Shown: one piece after another, positions 30,457 to 64,000 of the stretch | How the letters are laid out: every line of letters begins with the position of its first letter | Position numbering within the stretch: position 1 is the stretch's first letter | NCBI GenBank assembly: GCA_010909165.1 | Contig: VJWM01000151.1 | Location: forward strand, 434,001-498,000 | DNA: 64,000 bases | DNA from: Anthoceros angustus | Lineage: Eukaryota > Plantae > Anthocerotophyta | Reading direction: 5' to 3' | Position numbers and translations under genes: made by a program | Notes under the pieces: model-generated | The model's database searches: none | Told to the model about the DNA's origin: nothing | What the model saw: only the letters and a program-made list of their open reading frames with translations

Positions 30457-31588
30457 GGCTGCTTGGCTGGGTGGCTGGAAGGATGGCTCTCCTCCCTGCA
30501 GCCTGCTACCTGCTCCTCTTCAGCTGGGCGGAAAGGATCGTGACGCCTCGCTGAGATAACGTAGCTCTCACATGGCCGGCATCTTGTCTGATGCATCCTT
30601 CTTTCCAGGGACGTGTGGCCCGTGATCCGTTGTTTAATCACGGAAATTCTTCTGGGCATCCGGGAAGGTGCTGTCCTAGAGGTACTAAGGGTGCTTGACT
30701 GGCTGGTGTGGAAGACTTGGGCTAATCAGAGACATGGGGCTGATCGCCTCTTCTACGGACACGGTCAGGCCACCTGGTACCAATCAGGTCTCGCCTGTTG
30801 ATCGACATACGTATAAGGGCCTCCTTTGTCCTTGGTGCCACCTGGGCAGTGAAGACTTACGGGGAATCCCGGAAGAGAAGGCTAAGTCGCCATGCTTTAC
30901 AGCGTGAACTGTTACAGAGAACGTTCTACAAGGCCTCTTGTTTTTTCTTTTGGAAGACGACACAAACGGAGGATCGGGATCTGACGTCATATTGTATTCA
31001 GAGGAGGAAGCGATTAGTTGTCCTCTCAAGACTGCTCCTCCTGCTGATAGAGTTCAACATTCATGTCAAGGCAGCTTCAGGCTTTGAAATGATCGCTCCA
31101 GGCAGTAGCTGCCTTGTCTCCACCTGTATTGAGCCATAGACAAGTGGCACCTTCTGTGAAACATGGCCCACAACAGTCTCCTAAAAATCAGAGGCACCGG
31201 CCATCTCCCAGACTCACACTACTCAGAACAGCCAGTTTCAGTTCCGCCTGAAGTTATCACATGGTGCGCCTGGAGGATCTTGAGCACCTGAAATACCGGT
31301 GTGAACAATTCCGTCCACGTTATTAGAGGCATCTGGATGCTTTTGGAGCAGCAAAATGGTGGGAGCGGATGGCAATAGACCTCCAGGTCCCTGCCAATGG
31401 CTGATGAGACTTCTTCGCTGTGCGCAGGCGCCAGAGGAGCCAGTATGTGCCCATACACGCAGGTGGCGACCGCTGGTCGCCGCCCACCCGAGTTAGGGTT
31501 TTGTATCTGACGTGTTTTCGTCCTGTGCCGGGTATGTGGCCGGTTGAAGGCAGATACGTGTGTGCGACGAAGAGGTGAGAGCAAAGCG

Positions 31589-34500
31589 TCAATGCCCATT
31601 CCTACAGGAACAAGAGCCATCGATGAATCGATGAACTCCATGCCCGTCTCTCACGATGATCTCTCGCTTCTCAAGGCGTGACATGATCTTGGTGCTGCTG
31701 TGGCAGTCATTGCACATGCGCAGATTTTTGGTCACAAGCAATGTTGTGCCATCTGGCGTGTGCAGCAGACCATATGCCAAAGCAAGTTTCTCCGCATGCC
31801 CACACAAGGCATCCTCCTTCTCTTGCTCAGACAGTGCCTTCAGCACCAATTGTGTCTGTGCAACATGGCCTCCTTCCTCCCTCAACCGTGTATTCACGCT
31901 CCTCAGCTTTGCTGATATGTCAGACCTCTCTTCCCCAATTGTGAACTCATGCACCTCCTTGTCCACTTCGATGCATGCTTTGGCAGCTTTCTTCATAGCA
32001 CCGGATGACTTCCTCATGCTTTCTATCCTATCTACATCATCGAACCTTCCTGCATCTGCGTACAGGTTCCCTAACAGCACGTAGGAGCTTGCAAGATCAG
32101 GTGCTAATTCAACCAGATGATCAAAGCACCTCTGCCCGCGTTCTAAATCACCGTAGCTCTGGCAAGCAGTCAGCAGCGCTGTCCATCCAACAACATCCCG
32201 CACTGATGTGGTTCGCAACAAAACTTCCGCCTCCTCTAGTTTGCCAGATCTGCCGAGAAGATCAACCATGCAACCGTGATGGCGACCTGAGGGCACAATT
32301 CCATACTCATCGACCATCATCCTGAAGAACCGCTGGCCCTCGTGAACCAGGCCCGCATGACTGCAGGCCACAAGAAGACACGTAAAGGTCGTCTCATCTG
32401 GCTGGACCCCTTGCTGAAGCATGTCCACAAAACACTGGATTGCCGTGTGACCATCACTGTGTTCCGCATAGCCATAGAGCAATGCTGTCCATGTCACCGA
32501 AGTCCTCGTGGGCAATCCGTCAAACACTTTGCGGGCATCCGCCATACTCCCACATTTGGAATACATGTCCACCAGGCAGCTGCCAATGCATGCATCGCCC
32601 TCAAGGCCTCTTTTGCGGATTTGCAAGTGAAGCTCCTTCCCCTGCTGCAATGCTCCCACACTGCTGCACGCTTGGAGAAGGCACATGAAAGTGACATGAT
32701 CTGCTGGGGTGATGCCCTCTTTCTGCATGCTTGCATACAGAGCCAAAGCTTCCCGACCGAGCCCCTGCTGGGAATATCCGGCAATCATGGCAGTCCATGT
32801 CACCACATCCCTCCTGGGCAGCTTGTCAAACACAAGACGTGCCTCTTCTACACTCCCACATTTTGAATACATGTCCACAAGGCAACTGCCAAGGATTGGA
32901 TCAGCCTCCAGGCCTCTTTCCCGGATCTGTGCGTGCACCTCCTTCCCGTGCTGCAGTGCTCCCACACTGGTGCATGCTTGAAGAAGACACACAAAAGTAA
33001 CCTGATCGGCTGGAGTGAGTCCCTCCTTTTGCATGTCTTCATACAGAGACAGCGCTTCCCGACCAAGACCCTGCTGAGAATATCCTGCAATCATGGCAGT
33101 CCATGTCACCACATCTCTCCTGCCCACGAGACCATCAAAGATCTTTCGTGCATCACCTAATGCCCCGCACTTGGCATACATATTGACCAAGGAATTACCA
33201 ATCACCACATCTGCTTCAAAACCCCTTTCACGAATCTGTAAGTGAACCTCTTTTCCTTGCTGCAGTGCTCCCACACTTGCACATGCCTGGAGAAGGCACG
33301 CAAATGTGACATGATTGGCTTCCACCATGCCCTCACGTTGCATCCTGCCATACAGGGCCAGGGCTTCTCCACCGAGCCCCTGCTGACAATATCCTGCGAT
33401 CATGGCAGTCCATGTCACCACATCCCTACATAGTAAACTGTCAAACACTTTGCGGGCATCCTCCAAGCTCCCGCACTTGGCATACATATTCACTAAGTAG
33501 TTACCAATGGCTGCATCTGCTTCAAGCCCTCGTTCTCGAATCTGTGAGTGAAGCTCCTTCCCCTGCTGCAGTGCTCCGACACTTGCACACGCATGAAGAA
33601 GGCACACAAATGTGACATGATTCGCTGCAGCGCTGCCTTCGTGTGCATCCTTGCATACAGAGCTAGAGCTTCTCGCCCCAGCCCCTGGTGGCTGTATCCT
33701 GCAATCATGGCAGTCCAGGTCACTACATCTCTTCTGGACAAACCGTCAAACACTTTGCGAGCATCATCCAAGCTGCCACATTGAGCGTACATGTGCACCA
33801 GGCTGTTGCCAACGAAGACATCCACCTTGAAAGCAGTTGCCTGAATGTCAGCATGCACCTCCTTGCCCAAAATCAACTTCTTTGCAGCTGCACACGCCTT
33901 GAGAGCTGCCACGAAGACATGGCTGTCTGGCTCAACACCCGATTCTCGCATCTGCCGATAGAAGCTGATGGCCTGTAAGGGCTGTCCATGTCGGGCATGA
34001 GCCAAGATGATGGAAGACCACATGTAGATGCTGGGATTGGTCACCTGACCGAACACCTGCACGGCGTCCTCCAATTTGCCATGGGAAGCGTACATGCCAA
34101 TGATGTGAGTGGCCAAGAATGCATTGGACCCGTGCCCCTTCTGAGAGCAAGAGAATGAACAAGACTACTACCACTAACAAGATCTTTTGTGCAACGCACC
34201 TCTTGAGCACACGAGAAGAGAGTGTCGCTCACATAACATCCCTGCTGCACCAGCTCCTCCAGCGCCTCAACAGCCTGGCTCAGCTCTGCCCCTCGCACCG
34301 CTTCAACAAGGTCTGCACTTGAGTCCTGGTCATAATCCCAACTGGCCAGCTGCGAGTCCACCCAAGCTGGCTTGTCAGAGTTGTTCAGCCACAGGGCTCC
34401 CTGGAGGTCTTGTGCCTGAAGTCAGGATGCCGAGGGCTCTTCCTCTCCGGCCTGTTGTCCCACCACTCCCAGGGATTCGAGAAGAAGTGATGCCACAGCA

Positions 34501-42252: not shown

Positions 42253-45200
42253 ATGGCATTTGCGGAGGCGGTCTCCCACTGTTCCACAATGTTGTCTGCA
42301 AAGCCAAATTCTCCTTGCATGGATGCAGGATGTGTGTTCCGAAATGGCCCAACTGGGCGATCGGGGAAGTATGATGCACGCCCAGCTTGCTGTGCGAGCA
42401 CCTCCGTCACCGAAGGAGTGACACAGAAAGAGCGGCAGGAGCTCCTGTGGCACCACTTCTTCTCCTACCCCTGGGAATGGTGGGACAACAGGCCAGAGAG
42501 AAAACGAAGCCCCCGCCATCCTGACTTCAGGCACAAGACGTCCAAGGAGCCCCTGTGGCTGAGCAACTCTGACAAGCCGGCTTGGGTGGACTCGCAGCTA
42601 GCCAGCCGGGATTTACAGGTAGCCAGGGGACCCGGGTCTGGTGACCAGGGCTCAGAAGTGCAGAGCTTGTTGGTGCGGTGCGAGGAGGCAGAGCTGAGCC
42701 AGGCTGTTGAGGCGTTGGACCGGCTGGTCCAGCAGGGATTTTATGTCAGCGACAATCTCTTCTCTCGTGTCCTCAAGAGGTGCGTGGCACAAAAGGACCT
42801 TGTTTGTGGTAGGCGCGTCCATTCTCTTGCTCTCAGAAGGGGATGCGGGTCCAATGCATTCTTGGCCACTCACATCATTGGCATGTACGCTTCCCATGGC
42901 AAATTGGAGGACGCCGTGCAGGTGTTCAGTCAAGTGACCAATCCCAGCGTCTACATGTGGTCTTCCATCATCTTGGCGCATGCCCGACATGGACAACCCT
43001 TGCAGGCAATCAACTTCTATCGACAGATGCGAGAGTCAGGTGTTGAGCCAGACAGCCATGTCTTTGTTGCAGCTCTCAAGGCGTGTGCCTCCGCAGAGGA
43101 CCTGGTCTCTGGCAAGGAAGTGCATGCTGACATTCAGGCCGTTGCTGGCAAGGCAGATGGTTTCGTGGGCAACAGCCTGGTGAACATGTACGCCAAATGT
43201 GGCAGCTTAGATGAAGCTCGGAAGGTGTTTGACAGTTTGCCCAAGAAGGATGTGGTGACATGGACTGCCATGATCGCAGGATATAGTCAGCAGGGGCTTG
43301 GGCGACAAGCCCTAGCTCTGTATGCAAATATGGAGGATGAGGGCATCACTCCAGCTAATCATGTCACGTTTGTGTGCCTTCTTCAAGCCTGCGCAAGTGT
43401 TGAAGCGTTGCAGCAAGGAAAGCAGCTTCACTCACAGATTCGTGAACGAGGCCTTGAGGGAGATGCAGTCATTGGTAACTGCTTGGTGAACATGTATGCA
43501 AAATGTGGAAGTTTGGAAGACGCTCGCCAAGTCTTCGACAATTTGCCCAGGAGAGATGTGGTGACTTGGACTGCCATGATAGCAGGGTATGCTCAGAAAG
43601 GGCTCGGTCCTGAAGCCCTTGCCCTCTATGCTAGTATGCAAAGGGAGGGCATCACTCCTGCGGATCATGTTACTTTCGTGTGCCTCCTTCAGGCCTTTGC
43701 AAATGTGGGAGCCCTCCAACAGGGGAAAGAGCTCCACTCACAGATTCGGGAAAGGGGACTGGAAGCCAATCCACTCATTGGTAACTGCTTGGTGAACATG
43801 TATGCAAAATGTGGCAGCTTAGATGAAGCTCGGAAGGTGTTTGACAGTTTGCCCAAGAAGGATGTGGTGACATGGACTGCCATGATCGCAGGATATAGTC
43901 AGCAGGGGCTTGGGCGACAAGCCCTAGCTCTGCAAATAATGGAGGATGAGGGCATCACTCCAGCTAATCATGTCACGTTTGTGTGCCTTCTTCAAGCCTG
44001 CGCAAGTGTTGAAGCGTTGCAGCAAGGAAAGCAGCTTCACTCACAGATTCGTGAACGAGGCCTTGAGGGAGATGCAGTCATTGGTAACTGCTTGGTGAAC
44101 ATGTATGCAAAATGTGGAAGTTTGGAAGACGCTCGCCAAGTCTTCGACAATTTGCCCAGGAGAGATGTGGTGACTTGGACTGCCATGATAGCAGGGTATG
44201 CTCAGAAAGGGCTCGGTCCTGAAGCCCTTGCCCTCTATGCTAGTATGCAAAGGGAGGGCATCACTCCTGCGGATCATGTTACTTTCGTGTGCCTCCTTCA
44301 GGCCTTTGCAAATGTGGGAGCCCTCCAACAGGGGAAAGAGCTCCACTCACAGATTCGGGAAAGGGGACTGGAAGCCAATCCACTCATTGGTAACTGCTTA
44401 GTGACCATGTTTGCAAAGTGCGGTAGCTTGGATGATGCTCGAAAGGTGTTTGACAGTCTTCCCAGGAGAGATGTGGTGACGTGGACTGCAATGATTGCTG
44501 GTTATTCTCAGCAAGGGCTTGGGCGAGAAGCTTTGGCTCTGTATGCAAGCATGGAACAAGAGGGCATCACTCCTGCAAATAATGTTACATTTGTGTGCAT
44601 TCTTCAGGCATGTGCAAGTGTGGGAGCACTCCAGCAGGGGAAGCAGATTCACTCACAGGTCCGCGAAAGACGCCTTGAATCTGATGCAGCCATCGGTAAC
44701 TGCTTGGTGAATATGTATGCTAAGTGTGGGAGCTTGAGGGATGCTCGCAAGGTCTTTGACAATTTGCCTAGCAGGGATGTGGTGAGCTGGACTGCCATGA
44801 TTGCAGGATATTCTCAGCAAGGCCTTGGCAAAGAAGCTCTTTCTCTGTATGCATCTATGCAAAAGGAGGGCATTACCCCAGCCGATCATGTAACTTTTGT
44901 GTGCCTTCTACAAGCATGCGCCAGTGTGGGAGCCTTGCAGCAGGGCAAGGAGCTTCACTCACAGATTCGGGGAAGAGGCCTAGAGTCCGACACATTCGTT
45001 GGCAGCTGCCTAGTGGATATGTATTGCAAATGTGGGAGTGTGGATGAAGCCCGCGAAGTCTTTGACAGTTTGCCCAAGAGAGATGTTGTGACTTGGACTG
45101 CAATGATTTCTGGATATTCTCAGCAGGGAATGGGTAGAGAAGCCCTGGCTCTGTACGCAGGTATGCAAAAGGAGGGCATTACTCCAGCAGACCATGTTAC

Positions 45201-46302
45201 TTTTATGTGCCTGCTGCAAGCATGCGGTTGTGTTGGGGCACTGCAGCAGGGAAAGGAGCTTCACTTACAGATTCGGAAAAGGGGGCTTGAGTCTGATGCT
45301 TGCATTGGCAGCTCCCTGGTGGCCATGTATTCAAAATGTGGCAGTTTGGAAGATGCCCGCCAAGTGTTTGATGGATTACCCTCAAGAAATTTGGTGACCT
45401 GGACTGCGCTGCTCAATGGGTACGCTGAGCATAATGATGGACACATGGCAATCAAGTGCTTCGAAGACATGCTTCAGCAAGGGGTTCAGCCAGATGAGAC
45501 GACTTTCATATGTCTCCTTGTGGCATGCAGTCATGCAGGCCTGGTGGATGAGGGCCAACGATATTTCAGGATGATGGTTGATGACCATGGAATTGTGCCC
45601 TCGGATCATCACCACAGTTGCATGGTTGATCTCCTAGGCCGGTCCGGCAAACTGGACGAGGCGGAAGATCTGTTGCGAAGCACATTATTCAATGATGTTG
45701 TGGGCTGGACGGCTTTGCTAAGTGCTTGCAAAGGCCACGGTGACTTAGATCGTGGTCTTAGGTGCTTTGACCGCCTGGTAGAATTAGCACCTGATCTGGC
45801 AAGTTCTTATGTGCTGTTGGGGAACCTATACGCAAATGCGGGCAGGTGGAATGATGTGGATAGGATAGAAAGCTTGAGAAAGTCAGCGGGTGCCATGAAG
45901 AAGGCCGCGAAGGCATGCATTGAAGTGAGAAAAGAGGTGCACGAGTTCACCGTAGGGGAAGAAAGATCAGACATTTCATCGAAGGTGAAGAGTGTGAACA
46001 CGAGGTTGAAGGAGGAAGGAGGCCATGTCCCACAAACACAGCTGGTGCTGAAGGCAGTGTCTGAGCAAGAGAAAGAGGATGCCTTGTGTGGACATGCAGA
46101 AAAACTGGCCCTGGCGTATGGACTGCTGAACACGCCAGATGGCTCAACCTTGGTAGTGACAAAAAATCTTCGTATGTGCAATGACTGCCACAGCAGCACA
46201 AAGATCATGTCACGTCTAGAAAACCGAGATATCGTTGTGAGGGATGCACACCGAGTACATCTATTCAAGGACGGGGCTTGTTCCTGTAGAGATGGGCATT
46301 GA
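42253..46302 (+). CDS. PLS-class PPR-E-DYW protein C (1349 aa, ends CSCRDGH)
   Basis: Single open ORF: N-terminal WWDNR..PDFRHK motif, a long PLS array, E domain, KKAAKACIEV, HAEKLA, CNDCH. Confidence 0.93.
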   Translation: MAFAEAVSHCSTMLSAKPNSPCMDAGCVFRNGPTGRSGKYDARPACCASTSVTEGVTQKERQELLWHHFFSYPWEWWDNRPERKRSPRHPDFRHKTSKEPLWLSNSDKPAWVDSQLASRDLQVARGPGSGDQGSEVQSLLVRCEEAELSQAVEALDRLVQQGFYVSDNLFSRVLKRCVAQKDLVCGRRVHSLALRRGCGSNAFLATHIIGMYASHGKLEDAVQVFSQVTNPSVYMWSSIILAHARHGQPLQAINFYRQMRESGVEPDSHVFVAALKACASAEDLVSGKEVHADIQAVAGKADGFVGNSLVNMYAKCGSLDEARKVFDSLPKKDVVTWTAMIAGYSQQGLGRQALALYANMEDEGITPANHVTFVCLLQACASVEALQQGKQLHSQIRERGLEGDAVIGNCLVNMYAKCGSLEDARQVFDNLPRRDVVTWTAMIAGYAQKGLGPEALALYASMQREGITPADHVTFVCLLQAFANVGALQQGKELHSQIRERGLEANPLIGNCLVNMYAKCGSLDEARKVFDSLPKKDVVTWTAMIAGYSQQGLGRQALALQIMEDEGITPANHVTFVCLLQACASVEALQQGKQLHSQIRERGLEGDAVIGNCLVNMYAKCGSLEDARQVFDNLPRRDVVTWTAMIAGYAQKGLGPEALALYASMQREGITPADHVTFVCLLQAFANVGALQQGKELHSQIRERGLEANPLIGNCLVTMFAKCGSLDDARKVFDSLPRRDVVTWTAMIAGYSQQGLGREALALYASMEQEGITPANNVTFVCILQACASVGALQQGKQIHSQVRERRLESDAAIGNCLVNMYAKCGSLRDARKVFDNLPSRDVVSWTAMIAGYSQQGLGKEALSLYASMQKEGITPADHVTFVCLLQACASVGALQQGKELHSQIRGRGLESDTFVGSCLVDMYCKCGSVDEAREVFDSLPKRDVVTWTAMISGYSQQGMGREALALYAGMQKEGITPADHVTFMCLLQACGCVGALQQGKELHLQIRKRGLESDACIGSSLVAMYSKCGSLEDARQVFDGLPSRNLVTWTALLNGYAEHNDGHMAIKCFEDMLQQGVQPDETTFICLLVACSHAGLVDEGQRYFRMMVDDHGIVPSDHHHSCMVDLLGRSGKLDEAEDLLRSTLFNDVVGWTALLSACKGHGDLDRGLRCFDRLVELAPDLASSYVLLGNLYANAGRWNDVDRIESLRKSAGAMKKAAKACIEVRKEVHEFTVGEERSDISSKVKSVNTRLKEEGGHVPQTQLVLKAVSEQEKEDALCGHAEKLALAYGLLNTPDGSTLVVTKNLRMCNDCHSSTKIMSRLENRDIVVRDAHRVHLFKDGACSCRDGH

Positions 46303-49695: not shown

Positions 49696-52548
49696 TCAAT
49701 GCCTGTCCCCACACGAACAAGACCCATCCACGAATCGATGCACTCGATGCGCGTCTCTCACAATGATCTCTCTCATCTCAAGGTGCGACATGATCTTCGT
49801 GCTGCTGTGGCAGTCCTCGCACATACGCAGATTTTTCGTCACCACCAAAGTTGTGCCATCCGGCGTGTTCAGCAGACCATATGCCAAGGCCAGCTTTTCT
49901 GCATGCCCACACAAAGCATCCTCCTTCTCTTGCTCAGACACTGCTCTCAGCACCAACTGTGTGTGTGGGACGTGGCCTCCTTCCTCCTTCAACCTTGTGT
50001 TCACACTCCTCAGCTTTGACGATATGTCAGACCTATCTTCCCCTACAGTGAACTCGTGCACCTCATTCTTCACTTCAATGCATGCCTTTGCTGCCTTTTT
50101 CGAGGCACCGGCTGACTTTCTCAAGTTTTCTATCCTATCCACATCATCCCACCGGCCTGCATTGGCATAAAGGTTGCCCAATAGCACATATGAACTTGCA
50201 ATATCAGGTGACAAGTGTACAAGGTGGTCAAAGCACCGTTGCCCGCGCTCTACATCACCGTAGATTTTGCAAGCAGTCAGCAAAGCCGTCCAGCTCACAG
50301 CATCATTCACTATGGTGCTCCTTAACATACTTTCTGCCTCATCCAGTTGGCCAGAGCGTCCAAGAAGATCAACCATACAGCTGTAATGATAATCCTTGGG
50401 GACAATCCCATGGTCGTCAACCATCATCCTGAAATACCTCTTGCCCTCAGCCACCAGGCCTGCATGACTGCATGCCACGAGGAGACAGATGAAAGTCGTC
50501 TCAACTGGTTGTGCACCTTGCCGAATCATGTCTTCAAAACACCGGATTGCCATGTGACCATCACCGTTTTCAGCATAGCCCTTGACCATTGCTGTCCATG
50601 TCACAGAATTTCTGGTGGGCAATCCGTCAAATATTCTGCGGGCCTCATCCAAGCTCCCACATTTTGCATACATGTCCACCAGGCAGCTGCCAATAAATGC
50701 ATCAGCCTCCAAGCCTTTTTCTCGAATCTGTGAGTGAAGCTCCCTCCCCTGCTGCAGCGCTCCCACACTCGTGCAAGCTTGGAGGAGGCACACAAATGTA
50801 ACGTGATCCACTGCCGTGATGCCCTCCTTTTGCATATTTGCATACAACGACAGGGCTTCTTTACCTAGAGCCTGCTGGGAATATCCTGAAATCATGGCAG
50901 TCCATGACACCACATCCCTTGTGGGCAGAGCGTCAAACACTTTGCGAGCATCCTCCAAGCTCCCGCATTTTGCATACATGTTTACCAAGCAGTTACCAAT
51001 AGCAGCATCAGCTTCAAGGCCTTCCTCACGAATCTGTGAGTGAAGCTGCTTTCCTTGCTGCAAGGCTCCTACACTTGCACAAGCCTGAAGAAGGCATACA
51101 AACGTAACACGATTCGCTGGAGTGATGCCCTCGTGTTGCATACTCGAGTACAGGGCCAGGGCTTCTTGACCCAGCCCCTGCTGAGAATATCCTGCGATCA
51201 TGGCAGTCCATGAGACCACATCCTTCCTGGGCAAACTGTCAAACACTTTCCGACCCTCCTGCAACCAACCGCATTTAGCATACATATTCACTAACGAGTT
51301 AGCGATGATTGCATCTCCTTCAAGGCCACGTTCACGAATCCGTGAGTGAAGCTGCTTCCCTGCCTGCAGCGCCCCCATACTGGCACAAGCCTGAAGAAGG
51401 GACACAAAAGTCACTTGATTGGCTGGAGTAATACCCTCATTCTCCATATTCGCATATAGAGCTAGAGCTTCTTGCCCAAGACCTTGCTGACTATATCCTG
51501 CGATCATGGCAGTCCATGTCACAACGTCCTTCGTAGCCAAACTGTCAAACACTTCGCGAGCATCATCCAAGCTGCCACATTTGGCGTACATACTCACCAG
51601 GCTGTTGCCAACGAAAATGTCAGCCGCGACAGGACTAGCCTGAATGTGAGCATGGACCTCCTTGCCAGCAACCAGGTCCCCTGCAGAAGCACATGCCCTC
51701 AGAGCTGCCACAAAGATATGATTGTCTGGCTGAACACCTGACTCTCGCATCTCTCGATAGAAGCTGATGGCCTGTGTGGGCTGACCGTGCCTTGCATGCG
51801 CCAAGATGATGGTGGACCACATGTGCAGGCTGGGCGTGGTCACTGTACAGAAAACCTTCACTGCCTCCTCCAATTCCCCATGAGAAGCATACATACCAAT
51901 GATGTGATTGGCCAAGAATGCGTTGGACCCGCACCCACTTGTGAGAGCAAGACAATGCACACGCCTGCCACTAACAAGATCCTTCTGTGCTATGCATCGC
52001 TTGAGCACACGAGAGAAGAGCGTGTGAGTGATAGAACATCCCCGCTGCACCAAAAGATCCAAGGCGTCAACAGCATCCCTGAGCTCTGCTTCCTCGCATC
52101 GTTTGACCATCCTGTGAACCCAAGAGTCTCCTTTATCATCACCAGGTCCTCTGGCCAGCTGCGAATCCGAATCCCAACTGGGTAGCTGCAAATCCACCCA
52201 AGCCGGTTTGTAAGAATTGTTGAGCCACAGGGGCTCCTTTGAAGTTTTGTGCCTGAAGTCGGGATGGCGTGGGCTCTTCTTGTCCGCCCTGTTGTCCCAC
52301 CAGTCTGAGGGATATGACAACCAGTGGTGCCACAAGAGCTCCTGCCGCGCTTTCTGCGTCGTTTCTTCATTACAAGTGCCTGTGGTGCCATTTTGCCAAG
52401 CAGCGAGACATGCATTCCCTTGCCCCTTGCGGAACACACATCCTGCATAAATAAAAGACGAGCTAGGCTTCGCTGCCAACATGCTGGAATCATGCAAGAT
52501 CCCATCGGGAATTGCCACACCCAGCAAGAACTCCAGCTGGAACGCCAT
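49696..52548 (-). CDS. PLS-class PPR-E-DYW protein D, DRH type (ends CSCGDRH)
   Basis: Open ORF (in frame from 52704; likely start MAFQLE at 52548) with WWDNR..PDFRHK, PLS array, KKAAKACIEV, HAEKLA, CEDCH. Confidence 0.93.
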   Translation of the reverse strand: MAFQLEFLLGVAIPDGILHDSSMLAAKPSSSFIYAGCVFRKGQGNACLAAWQNGTTGTCNEETTQKARQELLWHHWLSYPSDWWDNRADKKSPRHPDFRHKTSKEPLWLNNSYKPAWVDLQLPSWDSDSQLARGPGDDKGDSWVHRMVKRCEEAELRDAVDALDLLVQRGCSITHTLFSRVLKRCIAQKDLVSGRRVHCLALTSGCGSNAFLANHIIGMYASHGELEEAVKVFCTVTTPSLHMWSTIILAHARHGQPTQAISFYREMRESGVQPDNHIFVAALRACASAGDLVAGKEVHAHIQASPVAADIFVGNSLVSMYAKCGSLDDAREVFDSLATKDVVTWTAMIAGYSQQGLGQEALALYANMENEGITPANQVTFVSLLQACASMGALQAGKQLHSRIRERGLEGDAIIANSLVNMYAKCGWLQEGRKVFDSLPRKDVVSWTAMIAGYSQQGLGQEALALYSSMQHEGITPANRVTFVCLLQACASVGALQQGKQLHSQIREEGLEADAAIGNCLVNMYAKCGSLEDARKVFDALPTRDVVSWTAMISGYSQQALGKEALSLYANMQKEGITAVDHVTFVCLLQACTSVGALQQGRELHSQIREKGLEADAFIGSCLVDMYAKCGSLDEARRIFDGLPTRNSVTWTAMVKGYAENGDGHMAIRCFEDMIRQGAQPVETTFICLLVACSHAGLVAEGKRYFRMMVDDHGIVPKDYHYSCMVDLLGRSGQLDEAESMLRSTIVNDAVSWTALLTACKIYGDVERGQRCFDHLVHLSPDIASSYVLLGNLYANAGRWDDVDRIENLRKSAGASKKAAKACIEVKNEVHEFTVGEDRSDISSKLRSVNTRLKEEGGHVPHTQLVLRAVSEQEKEDALCGHAEKLALAYGLLNTPDGTTLVVTKNLRMCEDCHSSTKIMSHLEMREIIVRDAHRVHRFVDGSCSCGDRH

Positions 52549-52925
52549 CTCCTCCTGCCTGGTCCACCGTTCAGGTCTGCTGCCTACTCCTGGTGCTTGT
52601 CTTGCTGCTCCATCCTCGGGCTCCCGACATGTTGCTGTGGCGAAACTGGTAAAATCGAGAGCGAGGCAAAAACGATGCCTGCACGTCCTAGGGTAAGCTG
52701 TCAAACCAATGCGATCATCCGCTGAATGTTAGAAAGATATCTCGGTCCGAAGCCAGGACAAGCCTTGAGGTCCTTCACCGTGTTGGATCAACTACATACA
52801 TATGTAACCTGTCATTGCTGTCCAAGTCTGGCTTGTGGCAACAATATCTGACACAGAGACAATGAACTTGCCTACCACAATCAAGAGACTTCAGTGACAT
52901 CTTGCGACCTACTCCCGTCCACATA

Positions 52926-53864
52926 ATGGCTCTTCAGTCCGACGAGCACAATCTGAGGCCGCTGGAAGCTCGTGACTTCCACAAAGGTGAGGGTCTCGAT
53001 GTGCTTCTGTCTTTCTGTTGAGTTGTTGCTTTGGGTTGTAACTCTGTTTGTGCCCAGGTTATTTTGACTTGCTGGAACAGCTCACGGTTGTGGGTGACGT
53101 CTCTGAAACACAGTTCGTTGGTAAGGATGCTGTGTCGGTATCCGGTCGTGATCAATGTGATCTGGTGGAGGAGCAGATGAAGTTGGAATGTGCTGACCTG
53201 ATGCAGGTCGGTTGGAACAGCTGCAGAAACGAGGGGACCTTCATCATGTTGTTGTCGTTGAAGGTGGGATGTAACCCTGTTGAACCCTGTTATTGCCAAG
53301 CCCAGCCCTCATCTGTCCTTTTGTCTACGATTGTTTGAACAGATGTGCGAAGAAGCAAAGTAGTGGCCACGGGAAGCCTGATGATAGAAGAGAAATTCAT
53401 CCGCAATTGTGGCAAGGTAAGCCATCTCTCAAGGACTCTCTTGTGCTGTGTCTGTAACTTTCACATGCTTACCGTGTCCTGAAATCCTTTCTCCAGGTGG
53501 GGCACATAGAAGACGTTGTAGTAGACAAAGGTGCTCGCGGCTTGCACCTTGGGCAGAGGTAATAGCGCAACTCTCCACCTTTCCCCCTTTCTAAGGGGAA
53601 GCTAATCCGGTTTCTTCAGTTTGTTCACTGAACCCGAGCTGATGTAGGGTGGTGGAAGCTTTGACAACCAGAGCAAAAGAAGCAGGATGCTACAAGGTAC
53701 GTGCCGGCGGGTTTGCAAAGAATGTTCAAACATATTGCTCAAGCCTGAAAAGATGGTGTGGCAATGCAATGCAGGTGATACTGGATTGTACTGCCGAAAA
53801 TGCTTCGTTCTATGAAAAGTGCGGTTTCTTCAGAAAAGACGTCCAAATGGCGCTCTATTTTTAG
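52926..53864 (+). CDS. GNA1: Glucosamine-6-phosphate N-acetyltransferase, 7 exons: 52926-52986, 53058-53120, 53207-53263, 53343-53416, 53497-53558, 53648-53696, 53775-53864
   Basis: All introns are GT-AG. The spliced 456 nt gives 151 aa: MALQSDEHNLRPLEARDFHKGYFDLLEQLTVVG...KFIRNCGKVGHIEDVVVD...GCYKVILDC...FYEKCGF...QMALYF, the GNA1 signature. Confidence 0.93.
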
Positions 53865-55823
53865 GGTTTCCAGACATCTCCCTTCCTGTGTGGGCAGCCT
53901 TATTGCCTGTAGGACCTATTGAATCACAGAGCCACAGACAAGCTTTATTCACAGTGGAAGTGGTCGTGTTTGCTGTTCTTGCGAACTACAAAGTCCTGCC
54001 TAAGTTCACTGTTCTGGTTCTGCCTGATACAACCTTCAGTGTATATCAGGCAGAATCTTACATGAGGTGCATGTGCACCCATTGCAGATCTGCAATGTGA
54101 CAACTTCCCTCAACTGGAATGATCCTGTCACACTCAATGAAGCTTTGAACAACTCAAGGATACTTATAACGGTAGGCAAAGGCCATGGCAACTGGATTTC
54201 ATGTCAGGTCAGGGCAACCGCATGCCCCTGGGGTCTTGGCAAACAGGCCACGCATATGCACGCAGACGACAGGCACGTTAGTGAAAGAGGATTGCCACTT
54301 TCACTCAGCAAAGGCCGACTCGATGCATCTGACTACTGAATACTGAAAGCAGGTCTCGCACAGTCATCCCGCACGCATGTGCGCATGTGTAGCATCCTAT
54401 CCATGCAGAATCCCACCAATTTGCCTTCAAGAACGCATGCCTGCATGCTCAAACGTGTGCAGCTTCTGCCGTGTGGGATTCTGTTGACAAGGATCCCACA
54501 CGGCAATGGCGAGCGCACACGGTGATATCGTCGGGCGGGGGATGCTCTCCCAGCCTACGGGTAATGTGTGAGAGGATGCCGATGTAGCTGTAACCTAATA
54601 TCATGTGACATGGGTCATGGGCGCATGCATATTCCGCCATAATTTGGGAACTCCGCCTACCTACACCCGAGGCAGATCGGGGCGGAGCCGTCCAGGGCGA
54701 AGCCATTGCAGCGACGGAAGACACGATCTGGGCGGAGCCGTTGCATCGACGGGCGATTCTAGCGGTTAGCCTGGTGAGCGGGCGATTAAGTATTGGACAG
54801 AAAATAGTTGCAGACCGATGAGGTACGGGCAAGGCATGTTAGGAACCATGTCCTCTTCTGGGCATGCCATCCCGTAAGCGGGTGGAATGTGCATTACGAG
54901 CTCAAAGAATTCTGTCACCCTGAATTGTGGGAGTCTGTTGGCTGAATTGCGGTTGTGTGCATTGCCGCTTTCAACAATGCCAGTTGCGGGCATCAAAAGG
55001 CCATGGACAATTTGTGTCAACATTGCGGCTCTCAACCAAATTGGCCCTGTTCCTTGATGCAGACACAGTGCGGATTTCAACATTACAGCCGTCCATGGAA
55101 AGCCGAGCAACCGGTTCACGTTCAGATTAGCAGGTGTGGCACTAGTTCCAGTTGTTTCCTCGTTCCAGTTCCTGATGTTTATATTCAGTTCACGATTGCA
55201 TCGGTTCCCCACTCCAGTTTCTGATGTTTAACTCTTGTTCGTGTTGCCCACTCCAGCGTGTATGATATTTCTAACTCTTGTTCTTGTTATTTCTTTGGCC
55301 TCCTCCTCGGAAGCGGGGGATCCTTTGGATCCATGTGCCATTGGAGGCAGGCCCGCTTCCCAAGAAGCTTTATGAGTTGCCTCGCTGCACCTTTACTTGG
55401 GCACCTTGTGCAGTCCCAGCCACCTTCCACCTTCAAATTCCCCTTCCTTTCCACCAGCCTCTCCAGTAACTCCTTTTCCTAACCTTGGACAGCCATCAGT
55501 GTCCAGCAACCCTTGTATAATAGACTTGGAAGCTCCTTCCCTGCCTCTTGGGAAAAGCTCCTTCCCTGCCTCTTGGGAAATCGTGTGACGGATCTAAGAA
55601 GAAGTCGAAAACTTCAAAAGCTGGCAGTAGCTATTGGCAAGAAAAGGCCGAAGATGTCGGAATCGAGATATTTTAGGGGTGGGAAGACCACCACATTTAG
55701 AACCTAATAGTGTTCAGGGGATCAAAGGATGCAGAATTTGACAAGTCCCGCAAACAAGGTACTTGCTTGTCCATCTAACGCATTGAGTACTGAGTTAGGG
55801 AAGCTTGATTTGTATAAGTTGTT

Positions 55824-56070
55824 GTGTTGGTGTTCCACGAGGTGGACATTTGGAATAAGATGGCTACAAAGGTGGCCATGGTTTGTGCAAACTTTGACAA
55901 GTCTGGTGAGGCTTGTCAAAAATGGAAATCAATTTACAACGATTACAAGATAGAGGAGGTAGCAAATTTTGTTTTTGGTAATGCTAGGTCCGAATGTTAT
56001 CATGGTATGACCTTGTTGATCAATTCATGCAGCATAGGGCACATGTAGTATGTGAGACTCATGTTGATTC
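55824..56070 (+). pseudogene. Myb/SANT (trihelix)-like fragment
   Basis: WNKMATKVAMVCANFDKSGEACQKWKSIYNDYK fits the WxxxA...CxxKWxxxxxxYK helix pattern; short and frameshifted. Confidence 0.5.
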
Positions 56071-56324
56071 ACACCAAGCTTTGGAGTCAGTGTGGAGTCA
56101 GTGGACAAGATATGAGAGTCCTATGTTGACACCTTGGAGAAGGTGTCACAAGGTAGCTATCGCACGAGGTAAGTACTTGCATTCATATGAGCACTTCCTC
56201 AACAGACAACCAAGCAAGAACATCAAATATGCAAATATAGGTGCAAACCAATTCTCCCTTGAAAATGTGAGACTCCAAGTCAAAACATTATCATTAGTAG
56301 GATTACTTACGTATAAACCTCATG

Positions 56325-56465
56325 TAGCGAATTGTGCACAAAACCAATCTTCTTCGGGAACCTCATCTGGAGGTGGCTAAACACAAAACATATAAAATCC
56401 CCTATTGCACCGATCACAAAGAAGCATCACATCATCTTCTTTAGTACGTCCACAAACTTGTCACA
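56325..56465 (-). pseudogene. PHD finger at the integrase C-terminus
   Basis: Manual translation: *QVCGRTKEDDVMLLCDRCNRGFYMFCV*PPPDEVPEEDWFCAQF. Confidence 0.8.
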
Positions 56466-57869
56466 CTAACTTTTTGATTGGACATCACATTGTAGGTTGC
56501 AGTTGAGGGTCCAAATTGGCTAAGTAGCATGGTGCGCAATCCTTAAGGTGTTGGCTGGCTTCCGATGCAGGTAGACATAGTCTCCAACTTCGAACTTGCG
56601 CCCCTTGGGTTTTTATGTCCCTCCCCTTGTGTAAGCAAAGCGCAATTGATCTCTTGGCTGCATTATGGCAAGGTTCTCCATTGCCATAGGCATGATCCAT
56701 CTGAAAAGCTCTGCCTGCCTTTCCAGGTCTCGTAGGCAGTCATCAGGATTGCGCCAATCCATTGGTGCTTGTAGCCTTGCTTCCCTCACATTTGGCAAAA
56801 ATGGTTGTCGCCATATAACAAGTAGTATGGCGAAAAGTTGCTCAAGGCCGCTTGATTGCTTACCCTATATCCTAGCACTAGATACGACATCCCTTGATGG
56901 TCAGTGATCAATCAAAACTGATGTCCAAACAAATACAGATGAAAATATCCGACTACCCACACTGCTGCAAGACATTGTCCATTAGGTAGTTGGACTCCGC
57001 CTAGTTGTTTCTCAGACTCGCATAAGCAATGACATGTTCCTCTTCCTTGTCATTGATCTATGCCAAGATTGCCTCTATGCCGTACTTGCTCCAATCAGTG
57101 TAAAGTACGAACGGCTTACTAAAGTCTGGATAACCAAGAATTAGCGAGCTCATGAGTCTACCCTTCAACTCCATGAAAGCTAACTCCTCCTCTTGAGTCC
57201 AACGCGAAGTAACAAACTTCTTCAATAGATCGTTCAACGGTCGCGCAATCCTGCTCATCCGTGGAATGAACTTTCTGTAGTATCCTGCCAACCCTAAAAA
57301 TGCCCTCAATTTCAAGGTGTCATTTGGCCTGGGAATGCACGCGATTGCCTCCATTTGGTGAAACCCTAGCCTCAAGTCCAATGTTGAGAAGAACTTGACA
57401 GACCCAATGGTGTCGAAGATCTCTTCGACTGTTGGCATGGGATAGTGGTCATGCGGGATTCGTTCGTTTCTCCTCTCCGTCCACAGTCCATTCTCATCCT
57501 TCTTCTTTGAAAGCACTATCGCAACTGTCTACTACGAATTAGATTGTCGAATCAGCCCTAGCTTGACAAGCTCTTGGTATGGATTCTCAACCAAGGCCCA
57601 CCCAAGTGTGAAAGCAAACACATGTCGCAATGCATCCAGCAACTCCTTCAGCTGACGCCATTGATTGCTCTTCTCCTCGGCACATGTCAACCACTCATGT
57701 GGTTGTGGCTCGGATGGCTTGCACGCTTCCTCTACGCGCTCACCCCCCTTGACCTCCAAACTCGCCTTCTCTTCTTGAGAAGCGAGTGCTGGAATGTCCT
57801 TTGCCCACCAAACCTTTTGGTTCAAGCCCGCCTTCTTTTGGTTTCGAAGTTGACAAGCGACTCTAGCGC

Positions 57870-58900
57870 TGAACAACCAGGTCATCATGTTCATGTCAAA
57901 TGCTTGCCCAAGCAATCGACACTGTTCCTTCTCGGTCACTCCCGGTGTCTTCATGGCTCGATGGCAATATCTGTGTAAAAGGGGTTTCTCCACAAAACCC
58001 CTTTTACACACCTGACGTCGGACCTTTTGCACTTGAAAAAATCCGCACTACAATCAGCCTTTTTGGTGTTTCTCTGCAGACATGTCACACGCAACCTTTT
58101 GAATAATTGTTTTGATACACGTTATTTGAGATTGTAGATTGCAAGTACGTGGCAAAAACCTATTAGACTTGGACATAAATGTTAGCCAAGCCGCTGTGGG
58201 GTGTCCAGGCGTGTTCATAGGGAAGTGCAGCAACTTGCCAGTCTTGATGATTTGCTGGGCATGCCTTCCCGATGCTAGCACATCCTTGACAACATGATCA
58301 AGCTGCTTGGTGAACGACCTCGCCAACTTCAGATGTTCTAAGGGAGCAAGGTTAGTTCACATGGACCTCTCCTACGAGCTCTCGAACTAAATTGAGCTGC
58401 ATCCAATAACAACTTTGACCCAACAGTCCCTGGATTGTGCCAAAGTCCTCCTAGACTTACTTTTTCACGCTCATGCATGTTGGCACATTCTTGATCATGT
58501 ATCCACAAGGCCTTTCTTGCCCATTCTGGATCAAGCGTAAGATCCTCATCAAGTCATAGAATGTTGTTCGTGGGTCCTTTAGACCCTGATCCTTGCCTGT
58601 AGAAGAGAGTCCCTGACACTCGCAATCTGCGATGACAAGGTCAATTGATTGCTCAGAAAGAGCTCAAATAGGACAACCCTATAATGCGAACATCCTTCGG
58701 CACCGCTGTCTGGTAACCCTTCACTAACTCCCACGTTAGGAGATTATAGTACTCCCCTATCAAGACCCGCATGCGCTTCTGTGACAATCCTTGCTTTCGG
58801 ATCCGGGTCACAATGCACGTATCTTCGTACTTTGGTGCCACTTTTCAGCATTGCTTCCAAGCCTGTACTGATGCCTTCAAAGAGTTCCACTAGCATTATG
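57870..58900 (-). pseudogene. C5 cytosine DNA methyltransferase domain (DNMT3-like) within pol
   Basis: Motif I/II IMLVELFEGISTGLEAMLKSGTKVRRYVHCD; IV IDLVIADCECQGLS; V GLKDPRT; VI YMIKNV; VIII LDAAQFSSRARRR..*TNL; X RLLGQAFDMN. All are in canonical order. Confidence 0.82.
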
Positions 58901-61480
58901 TCATCTTTCCAAGGTCGCCATGTGATCACCTGGGTGTTAAGGTTACAAACAGGCTCAACCCTAAGCAAGAACTTGCAGCAGTTCTTTGGCTAGAGGTTCG
59001 AGCAGGTATGGTGTGTCCGTCACCATGGTCCCAACCACTGGGTAGATGCTCTTGGTAATGAGATTCTCATGATCCTTGCCATGTAACTGCTGAGAAATGC
59101 GGGCAATCCGTTGATCAGTTTTGCTCCAGCTTCTCCAGCCTAGTCGAGAGTACATTATCTCCATCCACAAATCCACCATGACTCAAGGTTTGTACAAAGC
59201 GTTCACTCCCAGCAAAACATCGAATGTGTCTGCATTAGTGACCAAGCAGTGTACCTCGACAAAGGTGAAGTCAGCTGTTCGTAGTTTGAATGAAACCTTC
59301 AGCTTGTACCTCGTCACCCCCAACACACGCTCTGTGGTCCCGGCTACAATCTGGATCCTCTACTTGGTTTCCTTCAACTTGTCTTGGTGGAGACCCAATA
59401 CTTCCTTCACTCTTCTTCCAACGATCACCGGCTGTGCCCCGGTATCAAATAACACCCTCTTGGTACGAATCCATTGATTTCAATGTCTCTCCCGATTGTT
59501 GATCAAAGCCACCCCCACTCATGCAGCATGCCACTTCTTCACCGAAATGCTTAGCTCCAAGGTTAGCAAAGACGTCATTGCTACGTGCTGTGGCACATCG
59601 TGGACTTTTGCTTCATTTTCAAGGGTTGTCAACATCCGTCAAGTCAAAACCTTGACTTCCTTCACGCTCAGCCCCATATCTTGTAGGCTGAAACATGGCA
59701 TCTTCAGAAGCCTTTGCGCCATCGTCTCCATCAACAGTCTACGCATGGGTTTCCCCACGTCGCCCACTCCGGACTTTGATGTTGCTCCCACAATTGCTCA
59801 TGTTGGCAATGGCTCAAACGACTGTGGCATTGGCTCAAACGACTGTGGCATCTTGGCATTGGTTCGGGAAGAGGATCATGAAGCTTCCTTATGTGTCTTC
59901 CGCACTGCAGGTGGCAAGACATCCTCTTCTTCCTTTGAGCTATCTTCTCTCGTAGCTGCCAAAGGTTTCTTGCCCTTGCCCTTGGATCTGGTCATTGTCG
60001 CCATGTATCCAAGCTTGTGTTCATCTTCTTCGTCCTCTGATGATGAGCTGCTGCTCTCCTTGATCTTCGCCTTCCGCACCAACTTCTCCAGCTTTGCGAG
60101 ACGTGCCGCGTACTTGTCTATCATCTTTGTTGATGCTTCACATTTCTTCTGTCCCCGGGACTTCGCCAGTGCCTTCTCCATGGCGCCTCTGCTCTTTGCT
60201 GATTTTGTGGATGAGGTTGAAACAAATGCATTGGCCGGGGTTGTTGCTCGATAACTCGTAATTCGTAATTTCGGATGCTTCTCCAAACATATGGCTTCAT
60301 TGTGCCCGTACCTCCCACAGCTAGGGCACGGCTCCTCACCCTTGACTCCTCCAAATGCATGCTCACACTCATGAGGGGAATGGCCATCCCTCGGCACCTC
60401 ACATAGGTGCTCGTCATTTGGGCTGTGTGGGCTGGCTTGTTTCGTCGAGCTCCTCCACTATGACCTCCGCGTCGGTCACATTGTGCACCACTCCTACTTG
60501 GGCTGGAGTGATTACTTGCAACAGCACGAGAGAAAGTATTAGCAGGCCCTATCTTGTCAGCCATCTTGTATACTTCCTTGAGCATGTAGTGTTGTTACTT
60601 CGTGCTGTGCTCCGCTTGTTGCACCTTCATGTATAGCGCATATGGCAATGCTTGCAAGTACTTTTCTGCAGCCAGTCGATCACTCATGATCTTATAATCG
60701 TGTACCAACTAGTCGATTCTTCAGCTTGAAGTGTGTCAGCTCGAAGATCTTCTTATCCGTGCTTGCAGGAAACTCTAGTTAGAAGATGTCAAACATTTCT
60801 TGGATGAGATCTTGTGTCATGCCGTGTGATACTAATCTCTGCACTTGGGTTTAGTGTTTGATTAGCATTAGTTAATCTAATTACTTATCTTTAAGTAAGT
60901 AATTAGTGTTAATTAATCTAAGGTGCTTATGTTAATTAAGCATTGATTAGTGTTAATTAATCTAATGTGCTTATGTTAATTAAGCATTGATTAGTGTTAA
61001 TTAATCTAATGTGCTTATGTTAATTAAGCATTGATTAGTGTTAATTAAACATGGTTAGCAATAGCTAAGTGGATAAGCTCAATATGCTTTGGCATATTCC
61101 TTGCATATTATAGTGTATTCTTAGGATACAATAGCTAAGTGGATAAGCTCAAGTAATATGCTTTGGCATATTCCTTGCATATTATAGTGTATTCTTAGGA
61201 TATTTCCGGCATATCGATGCCAATAGGATATCTTAGGAATATGCCGATGCAGTCTAGTATATAGACCCTTCCATTGAGGACAAGCTCAGATCATAGCTTG
61301 TCCTCTAGATATGCAATGCAAGAGCGTTGTGAGGAGGCCAAAGCTATGACTCCGAGAGCGATGTGTGAGGAATTTGCGTGTTGTTCTCGTGGGGAGAGTG
61401 TGTTTGTGCCACGACGTGCGAGCTACTCCCTCCTGTTGTTACAAGCTATGATCTCGTGTGTGTACACTAGATAGGCTGTG

Positions 61481-61590
61481 CTAGGCGATGCTAGGCGATG
61501 CTAGGCGATGCTAGGCGATGCTAGGCGATGCTAGGCGATGCTAGGTGACGCTAGGCGATGCTAGGCGATGCTAGGCCGTGCTAGGCGAGG
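61481..61590. repeat. Decamer array (ctaggcgatg)x11
   Basis: Directly visible; 8 perfect and 3 variant units. Confidence 0.97.
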
Positions 61591-61669
61591 CTACGCGAGG
61601 CGACGCTCGCTCTTTAAGCAAGTAGGCAAGGGACTCTCTGAAGTGTGCCCAAGGCTTGAGGCCTAGAGA

Positions 61670-61910
61670 GGGGACCAAGCCCAAGGCGAAGGAGAGGAGG
61701 AGAAGAAGCTCAAGCCCAAGGCCAAGGAGAGGAGGCAAAGAAGCCCAAGTCCAAGGCCAAGGAGAAGAGGCGAAGAAGCCCAAGTCCAAGGCCAAGGAGA
61801 GAAGGAGAAGAAGCCCAAGCCCAAGGCCAAGGAGAGGAGGCAAAGAAGCCCAAGCCCAAGGCCAAGGAGAGGAGGCGAAGAAGGCAAGAAGCCCCTACCA
61901 AGGAGAGGAA
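61670..61910. repeat. Purine-rich leader repeat ccaaggccaaggagaggaggc(a/g)aagaagcc
   Basis: About 6 imperfect 33-39 bp units. Confidence 0.85.
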
Positions 61911-62059
61911 TGAGGCCTCCACAAGGGGGGCTGGCCTTTTAAGGCCAACCAACCAAGGGAGAAACAAGAGTATTTTACTCTTGGGCCCCGGATTCCAAGG
62001 GATAAGGGGGAAGCGGATAGACATGGGTATGTCATCAGTCCATTTCACTTTCTGTCCAA

Positions 62060-62130
62060 AACTCCTGGTTAGCCAGCACCCCATCCAAGTACTGATCCAC
62101 CCCACGGGTGCTTAACTCTGGAGTTCCTAT
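62060..62130 (-). promoter_or_regulatory. 5S rRNA-derived internal Pol III (type 1) promoter-like sequence
   Basis: Reverse complement gaactccagAGTTAAGC-16 nt-AGTACT-tGGATGGG has the same box order and spacing as plant 5S (AGTTAAGC-16-AGTACT-AGGATGGG). The 5S 5' and 3' ends are not conserved. Confidence 0.72.
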
Positions 62131-64000
62131 GCCTTTGCTATCCAACTCACCCAGCTCACATTTTTGGATTGAGATATAGCCTGCAGAGTATTTCTATGCA
62201 ATTTTAACATGCATAGATACTTAGAGGTTTCACTAATCACGATCTAAGATAGCGGGGTGTGTTAACCTTGATTAAGGGTTTGATCTAGCCACTAACCGCC
62301 TGGAGTGCATGCTCGACACACTCGATCCGGACGGAGCTACCAACCAAGTCCATCGAGCGAATTCAAGTCCCGACCAAGAGGAGAAGTGCGAACACTCGAT
62401 TTTGGTACCACCGAAGGACGCGGAGGAACCCAGCGACACAATCAACAATCTTTGAAGGATCTGGTGGCAACACACAAGACACGTTAGTCTTCGGACAACT
62501 CGGTGAGCGGCGAGGAGGACTTGTCTCTTGGAGTCGTCAAGATGGGAGGAGACAAGGATCGAATGGAGTTGTTCACAGGACGAGCGGGCACCTTGCCACT
62601 GGAGGACTTCATCGAGAAATGCAGTGCGGTGTGTGCGGAGATGGAATTGAAGACCGGATACACGAAGCGATACGGCTTCATCCAAATGCCGAAGTACTTG
62701 GGGGATGAAGCATTGGCGTGCTATCGCGAGCACAAGGCGAGGCTGTTGAGCGGCACAGCTGGAGGACCAGTGAGTAGCAGTTCAAGCTCCGAAGGAACCA
62801 GTGCAGACGGAGCAGTGGCACCGAGTGGGCACGATCCCATCGAAGAGATGTTTGACATCTTCCGGCTGGAGTTTCCTGCAAGCACGGATGAGAAGATCTC
62901 CGAGCTGACACACTTCAAGATGAAGTCAGGCGAGACTGCGAAGATGGCTTACCGAAGAATCGACCAGTTGGTACGTGACACCAAGATCATGAGTGACCGA
63001 CTGGCTGCAGAGAAGTACTTGCAGGCATTGCCATATGCGCTGCGCATGAAGGTGCAACAAGCGGTGCAGACGAAGGGCAACACTACACCCTCAAGGAAGT
63101 GTACGAGATGGGCGACAAGATAGGGCCCGACACTTTCTCTCGTCTTTGTTGCAAGTGATTACTCCGGCAAGTAGGAGTGGTGGACGACATGACCGACGCG
63201 GAGGTCGAGTGGAGGAGCTCGGCGAGACAAGCCAGCCCACAGCCCAAGTGGCGAGCCCTGCGTGAGGTGCCGAGGACGGACCATTCCCTCATGAGTGCGA
63301 GCATGCATTCGGAGGAGTCAAGGGTGAGGAGCCATGCCCTAGGTGTGGGAGGTACGGCACAATGAAGCGGCATGTTGGGAGAAGCATCCGAATTGCGGCC
63401 TCACGGGTTATCGAGCAGCAACCCGGCCAATGCATCTGCGTCAACCTCATCCACAAAATCAGCGAAGAGCAAAGGCGCCGTGGAGGAGGCACCGGCGAAG
63501 TCCCGTGGACAAAAGAAACGGGAAGCATCAAAGAAGACGATGGCACAAAAGCTTGGATACATGGCGACCTCGGGCCAAGCATCTCGTGGAGAAGCTGGAG
63601 AAGTTGGTGCGGGCGAAGATCAAGGAGAGCAGTTCATCATCGGAGGACGAAGAAGATGAGCACAAGCTTGGATACATGGCGGTGACCCGGATCCAAGGGC
63701 AGGAAGAAACCTCTGGCGCTACGAGAGAAGATAGCTCGGAGGAAGAAGAGGATGTCTTGACACCGGTCACGGAAGACACGGAAGGAAGCTTGGGATCCTC
63801 TTCCGAACCTATGCCAAGATGCCAAAGTCGTTTGAGCCATTGCCAACAGGAGCAACTGGGAGCAACATCAAAGTCCAGTGGGCGATGTGGAGAAACCCAT
63901 GCAGATTCTTGGCGGAGGCGATGGCACAAAAGCTTCGGAGATGCCATGTTTGACCTACAAGACATGGGGTTGAGCGTGAAGGAAGTCGGGGTTTGACTCG

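Follow-up and report, generated by a model that had tools for sequence, protein, structure and literature searches.

A decayed Ty3/Gypsy retrotransposon copy with a DNMT3-like cytosine methyltransferase domain in the hornwort Anthoceros angustus

Introduction

Hosts hold transposons in check chiefly by methylating DNA, a defence that is turned around by an element encoding a methylation writer of its own. A 64,000-nucleotide stretch of the Anthoceros angustus genome (contig VJWM01000151.1, positions 434,001 to 498,000; hereafter the window) raises the question of whether such an element resides in a land plant, as the original prediction, made from the nucleotides alone, placed a DNMT3-like cytosine methyltransferase between the protease (PR) and reverse transcriptase (RT) of an LTR retrotransposon. 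Here, we ask whether the domain is there, what kind of element and enzyme it represents, whether it is family-wide, and what it might do.

Results

A broken C5 cytosine methyltransferase domain in pol

The minus strand of the window from 58941 to 57847 holds a broken C5 cytosine methyltransferase domain within pol, divided into six pieces by four frameshifts, plus stops, with its motifs spread across three minus-strand frames in six-frame translation. It is recognised by PF00145, by a profile of the family, and by tblastn with the related proteins P0082, P0086, and P0102. A Pfam scan of 60 pieces, seven of them from this region, matched PF00145 in one of the seven (58460-58663, minus; E 6.2e-5), scoring 23 bits against a curated cut-off of 22, so the profile check proposed for the domain gives a match; the same piece is similar to the part of HhaI that surrounds the catalytic Cys (E 0.009). 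The motif I piece has a weak phmmer match to the N-terminus of DNMT3B/3C (E about 1), and the family profile, built from 90 relatives with the window sequence excluded, matches motif I with an E of 7e-12. This profile matches six stop-free pieces, all within 58989-58047 and in profile order, with E values from 2e-13 to 0.06, and its best match elsewhere in the window has an E of 2.8. Read through with X at the breaks, the domain scores 179 bits, compared with a maximum of 1.3 among 200 shuffles.

All of the motifs that had been placed by manual translation are found on the minus strand at their predicted positions: the SAM-binding motif I (IMLVELFEGISTG, 58861-58899), seen both in six-frame translation and with the family profile; motif IV (58613-58639, with IDLVIADCECQGLS starting at 58639 and the catalytic Cys codon at 58618-58616), located by translation, PF00145, and the HhaI match; motif VI (YMIKNV, 58484-58501), where relatives have EN; motif VIII (58348-58403), reading DAAQFSSRARRR at 58403-58368 and then TNL at 58356 beyond a frameshift; and motif X (RLLGQAFDMN, 57889-57918), which like motif VIII was found by translation and tblastn. 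The linear order I, IV, VI, VIII, X is kept. Motif IX is present in relatives and replaced here, with about 186 bases unlike the family (57970-58155) standing at the place of the GPG..EP..ERE region; an imperfect palindrome of 39 bases (57972-58010) lies inside this stretch. The window copy departs from its relatives in the Asp-Cys preceding ECQ, reading DCECQ where other copies and relatives have G-W-E-C-Q, and in the Lys of KNV. The Glu before the catalytic Cys is no sign of decay, being the usual state among relatives.

The domain lies in a dead Ty3/Gypsy element

The element is a member of the Ty3/Gypsy group with the order gag-PR-DNMT-RT-RH-INT-PHD, collinear with the intact relative P0082, which has 2358 residues in a single ORF and protease, DNA_methylase, RVT_1, RNase H (RH), integrase (rve), and PHD (PF00628) domains. 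P0082 is the best match for the RNase H and integrase remnant in the window and second-best for the RT N-terminus, and this collinearity bears out the proposed location of the DNMT3-like domain between protease and RT. All parts lie on the minus strand: gag (59642-60814; self-comparison and tblastn), whose 5' end is cut where a plus-strand copy begins; an aspartic protease (59165-59455) with LFDTGA, one stop, and broken edges, matching P0082 residues 672-769 (E 2e-9) and P0086 (E 8e-19); an RT N-terminal remnant (57349-57600; P0005, E 5e-20); the RT connection and RNase H (56846-57357; PF17919, E 1e-11; P0082 residues 1608-1780); an integrase C-terminal remnant (56544-56881); and a broken PHD finger at the pol end (56296-56568; P0082 residues 2265-2351). 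The claim of collinearity with protease upstream and RT-RH-INT-PHD downstream thus holds for domain order and fails for completeness, since only the N-terminal part of RT remains and the integrase core is gone. Relative to P0082, the alignment jumps from residue 1495 to 1608, with the loss of about 113 RT residues including the YxDD core, and from 1780 to 2126, with the loss of about 345 residues, a gap that takes in the linker between RH and integrase as well as the integrase zinc finger and core. Because of the four frameshifts, the stops, the replaced motif IX, and the deleted RT and integrase cores, the window copy is unable to make protein and is dead, as anticipated.

A Myb/SANT-like remnant (PF13837, E 0.02) lies past the 3' end of the element at 55711-56048, perhaps belonging to another Harbinger element. 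A decayed second Gypsy remnant with protease and RT is present on the plus strand at 5600-7300, and the DNMT profile has no match on this remnant.

The DNMT domain is family-wide

We compared the region with contigs from four of seven sequencing runs, X1, X2, and X3, from three organisms, and X7, which is putatively RNA. Contigs from the three organisms matching 55500-64000 number 3027, 6323, and 5655, covering all five bins of the DNMT domain, and 43, 243, and 192 contigs match 58330-58930 alone; run X7 has seven contigs, mostly with less than 90% likeness. Motif IV reads G-W-E-C-Q in three contigs of X1 and in six to seven of X2, and among the 40 of 65 differences listed, contig indels fall at at least two of the window frame breaks. 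No run contig spans the whole element, and no intact copy from the window's host was seen in the contigs examined.

A direct homolog search with the C-terminal DNMT frame of the window yielded none among 129 candidates; a HMMER scan of representative proteins gave one match, P0004 (E 4.9e-4), which opened the family. Protein searches then led to 96 relatives, drawn from 7993 scored candidates of 834-2380 residues. The DNMT domain stands before RT or directly after the protease in 13 of these (order A) and between RNase H and integrase in 75 (order B), with the other eight unassigned. The split is tilted towards order B by the query profile, which had the same leaning, and by the restriction of scoring to 7993 candidates. 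Of the proteins with a named source, six of order A come from Closterium sp. NIES-53/54, and those of order B from two chlorophytes, Haematococcus lacustris (P0097) and Tetradesmus deserticola (P0027). A PHD finger follows the integrase in 61 of the 96. With the domain carried both by these relatives and by contigs of other copies from three organisms, it is a family-wide feature of this many-copy element and not a one-off host insertion. Scans for the DNA loci of the relatives gave 174 and 20 pattern matches in metagenome contigs and 12 in viral contigs, none of which was confirmed.

We also note that P0094, P0095, P0096, and P0099 are divergent DNMT-RT-RH-INT-PHD polyproteins, far off in the DNMT tree and with an altered motif IV, and that three order-B polyproteins (P0042, P0057, and P0061) have an extra G-patch domain (PF01585) in their precomputed annotation.

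DNMT and RT trees

The DNMT tree comprises 91 rows (a quick search, unrooted and without bootstrap or outgroup, with six short rows left out) and places the window domain in a 10-row group with P0082, P0086, P0005, P0006, and five Closterium rows (SH-aLRT 97). It remains with the same four proteins (SH-aLRT 98) after trimming that took out nine rows for being long or odd, along with 31 of the 71 in order B. Four order-A rows form a second, divergent group that stands apart. The RT/RH tree (67 rows; likewise a quick, unrooted search) separates all ten of its order-A rows, including the window, from 57 order-B rows (SH-aLRT 99). The window branch is long, at 1.3-1.8, and the nearest relatives of its DNMT domain are retroelement domains with 30-36% identity. 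The simplest reading of these trees would be one move of the DNMT domain within Pol, and two separate captures could also account for orders A and B.

A DNMT3-like enzyme with an unusual motif IV

When the family profile, here from alignment A2 with five window pieces among its rows, is run against solved structures, DNMT3A comes out on top (E 3e-16), followed by DNMT3C, DNMT3B, HhaI (5e-10), and DRM2 (1e-5). A model of the relative P0021, predicted from 50 sequences with a pLDDT of 88.9, has DNMT3B and DNMT3A as its best Foldseek matches, and superimposes on DNMT3B with a Z of 27.9 and an rmsd of 2.7 over 280 residues; the Z scores for M.MpeI (25.2) and HhaI (24.4) put the DNMT3B lead at under 4. 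By profile and predicted fold, the family is DNMT3-like.

The usual catalytic dipeptide of C5 methyltransferases is Pro-Cys, as seen in HhaI in its alignment with the window piece. Among the 96 relatives, motif IV has Glu-Cys in 69, Pro-Cys in ten, and Ser-Cys in one, so that the catalytic Cys is present in 80, and the remaining 16 are unreadable or lack the region. The Pro-Cys members fall inside the same DNMT tree. The Glu-Asn of motif VI, often within ENT, ENA, or ENS, and one Arg of motif VIII are invariant in 50 relatives. Intact relatives retain the catalytic Cys, the motif VI Glu-Asn, and the motif VIII Arg, from which we take live copies to be probably active methyltransferases.

The CpG observed/expected ratio is 0.61 in the element, between those of a neighbouring Gypsy fragment (0.85) and the host PPR genes (0.45-0.54), and thus gives no sign of self-methylation. 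Tallied by codon, 38 differences gave no information about selection; the 21 shared differences are distributed 8/3/10 over the codon positions, with 14 non-synonymous and seven synonymous, and are mixed with the decay of the window copy.

A sister copy and the terminal repeats

A sister copy begins at 60815 on the plus strand, abutting the truncated gag of the minus-strand copy, which fits a nested insertion. It opens with the 5' part ('A') of a terminal repeat (60815-61463, plus), beginning TGTCA and matching 20498-20023, and its gag (62536-64000, plus; 79% to the minus copy; P0086 residues 1-206, E 4e-21) exits the window ahead of the protease. The two copies are 79% identical with gaps over 1233 columns, and 88% identical over 1109 aligned bases (K2P 0.13). 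In the sister copy, the terminal repeat and the leader are separated by about 850 bases (61464-62315) with 10-base and 35-base tandem arrays, a stretch with good coverage in run X1 and poor coverage in X2 and X3.

In the minus copy, the 3' part of the repeat ('B') immediately follows the PHD, at the element end (56158-56250, minus), where it is 91% identical to 19899-19954 and where joints in run X3 end at 56160. Self-comparison also reveals a solo terminal repeat of the same family (19899-20498, minus), with A then B, and the plus copy has A alone at its 5' end. Part B was sought in 61400-62600 and gave scores of 17-19, with shuffles reaching 22; one contig of run X7 hints at a coding-then-A arrangement, with a score (26 against a background top of 25) that does not stand out from background. 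The layout fits DIRS-like split repeats (A-coding-B-A-B), and deletions in ordinary LTRs would fit it too. No primer site or target-site duplication was found at the window copies, none of which has both ends.

Neighbouring genes

The window also contains an intact L-gulonolactone oxidase-like gene (16121-18016; GC 0.67) with an inverted broken duplicate at 27400-30519 (83-88% identity), an open 641-codon Harbinger-type transposase (21453-23378; DDE_Tnp_4, Plant_tran), a tRNA-Ser(AGA) gene (24425-24507, minus), and a frame at 53500-53900 that we take, by eye, to be a glucosamine-6-phosphate N-acetyltransferase (GNAT). A cluster of intronless PPR-DYW genes of the KP type, candidates for U-to-C editing, occupies 31589-52728 together with broken paralogues; it is duplicated internally with a step of about 306 bases and contains stretches copied at 100% identity. 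It includes genes identified by Pfam at 42256-46302 (plus) and 31589-33745 (minus), and a host gene at 49696-52728 (minus), identified by Pfam, HAE, RMC, and its C-terminus, which ends DRH. HAE is present in all four DYW domains of the window; RMC occurs in the three that are complete, whose C-termini are DGH, NGH, and DRH. According to passages of PMC9478123, HAE is specific to DYW:KP proteins and found only in hornworts, lycophytes, and ferns, and DRH is a hornwort variant. This one gene family thus points to a probable hornwort host, with a lycophyte or fern less likely.

Discussion

What would a live copy do with its methyltransferase? We favour the reading, with a probability of roughly 0.6, that the window holds a decayed copy of a Ty3/Gypsy element with a PR-DNMT3-RT polyprotein, whose live enzyme is likely packed with RT and methylates double-stranded cDNA before insertion. 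The DNMT would enter the particle together with RT and would methylate the new double-stranded cDNA in cis, ahead of insertion, as suggested by its fusion to RT and as argued for similar elements by de Mendoza et al. 2018 (PMC5890265, here and below from its passages on these elements). The target is probably CG, given the likeness to DNMT3 and to SymbioDIRS-Dnmt3, which in yeast adds de novo methylation at CG sites (PMC5890265). The integrase carries a PHD finger that may read histone tails and choose the insertion site, and the likely gain would be a new copy that arrives resembling methylated host chromatin.

It is unlikely, in our estimate, that the domain is kept as something other than a working DNA methyltransferase, such as a binder of cDNA, RNA, or SAM, an enzyme acting on RNA, or a structural part of Pol. 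The Glu-Cys at 69 of the 80 readable motif IV sites would suit such a role, as would the frequent ENT, ENA, or ENS of motif VI, the two different positions of the DNMT in Pol, and the inactivity of KnitGypsy-Dnmt3 in yeast, where no methylation was detected in an experiment termed inconclusive (PMC5890265). However, the Cys is kept in 80 of the 96 relatives with the motif VI Glu-Asn and the Arg invariant, Pro-Cys members sit within the same tree, the P0021 model has a complete DNMT3 fold, and human DNMT3B failed in the same yeast assay (PMC5890265). A working enzyme could instead have host chromatin as its main substrate, during or after insertion and at flanks or other copies, with the PHD finger as its guide, and either damp the element or reshape its site. 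The PHD finger after the integrase in 61 of 96 relatives is in keeping with this, and self-limiting and chromatin effects are raised in PMC5890265, but fusion of the DNMT beside RT favours action within the particle. Moreover, CHH methylation is near-absent in Anthoceros agrestis (passages of PMC10952607), which, if our host is similar, gives no sign of stray non-CG DNMT3 activity, and we regard action mainly on host chromatin as rather improbable.

The original prediction also raised the element as a source or sink for plant DNMT3, and one could imagine a single capture of a host DNMT3 gene or retrocopy in the lineage of the window, carried along as a passenger, as land plants possess DNMT3 genes (passages of PMC6453930) and the window copy is decayed. 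The suggestion of exchange with plant DNMT3 finds no backing here: the domain is intronless and runs into RT and not DUF3444, and its nearest relatives are retroelement domains. These same features tell against a passenger, as do the same domain position in Closterium and metagenome relatives and the agreement of the DNMT and RT trees, leaving such a single capture very improbable.

Methylation of cDNA by a packaged enzyme, our preferred reading, can be extended to the family as a whole. A tentative proposal, to which we give somewhat less than an even chance, is that DNMT3-bearing, PHD-tipped Gypsy elements are one old green-plant lineage spanning chlorophytes, Closterium, and hornworts, in which the DNMT changed its place in Pol a single time (RH-DNMT-INT in chlorophytes, PR-DNMT-RT in streptophytes), uses an unusual Glu-Cys active site, and lets copies insert premethylated in land plants. 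If the family does reach both hornworts and chlorophytes, the capture would have a much greater age and spread than in the 2018 description, which knew a single green alga, and the idea of self-methylating cDNA would become approachable in species for which genomes, methylomes, and cultures exist. The Glu-Cys motif poses a concrete biochemical question, whereas the window copy itself is a fossil, of value as a marker only.

Among known systems, the closest precedent is KnitGypsy-Dnmt3 of Klebsormidium nitens, a Gypsy element with DNMT3 in Pol (PMC5890265). Like the window element, it has an intronless DNMT3-related domain in a Pol ORF without rearrangement and a streptophyte host, which supports the predicted kinship with an algal element. 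Split repeats are reported for the Klebsormidium element. The two differ in that the window host is a land plant and the window copy is dead, and the kinship we infer draws on its description only, no Klebsormidium-labelled protein being among the relatives from our protein searches. Capture in the K. nitens lineage was called independent (PMC5890265), whereas the present relatives span Closterium and two chlorophytes. No account of a land-plant or chlorophyte DNMT-Gypsy was found in the literature searched, which lay outside subscription journals and the 2018 supplementary figures, and none is described in the passages of PMC12344493, PMC10952607, and PMC6673714; those of PMC12344493, a 2025 survey, cite only streptophytes and dinoflagellates for DNMT retrotransposons. 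New here are the chlorophyte relatives with DNMT between RNase H and integrase, the wider host range, and the mostly Glu-Cys motif IV.

SymbioDIRS-Dnmt3 and SymbioLINE-Dnmt of Symbiodinium share with the window family a DNMT3-type domain beside RT and two coexisting domain orders, although, as described in PMC5890265, they have tyrosine-recombinase or LINE backbones, and the window family is a DDE-integrase Gypsy with PHD. Host plant DNMT3 (PpDNMT3a/b; passages of Yaari et al. 2019, PMC6453930) and animal DNMT3A/B have the same motif order and fold, and the modelled relative has 20-27% identity to DNMT3 catalytic domains; however, the plant enzymes carry DUF3444, whereas the element domain is intronless, fused to protease and RT, and mostly Glu-Cys. 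Chromatin-reader retrotransposons with PHD, chromodomain, or CopiaMBD (passages of PMC6673714) share the PHD at the pol end, a proposed integration guide; unlike these, the window family joins a writer, the DNMT, and a reader, the PHD finger, in one polyprotein.
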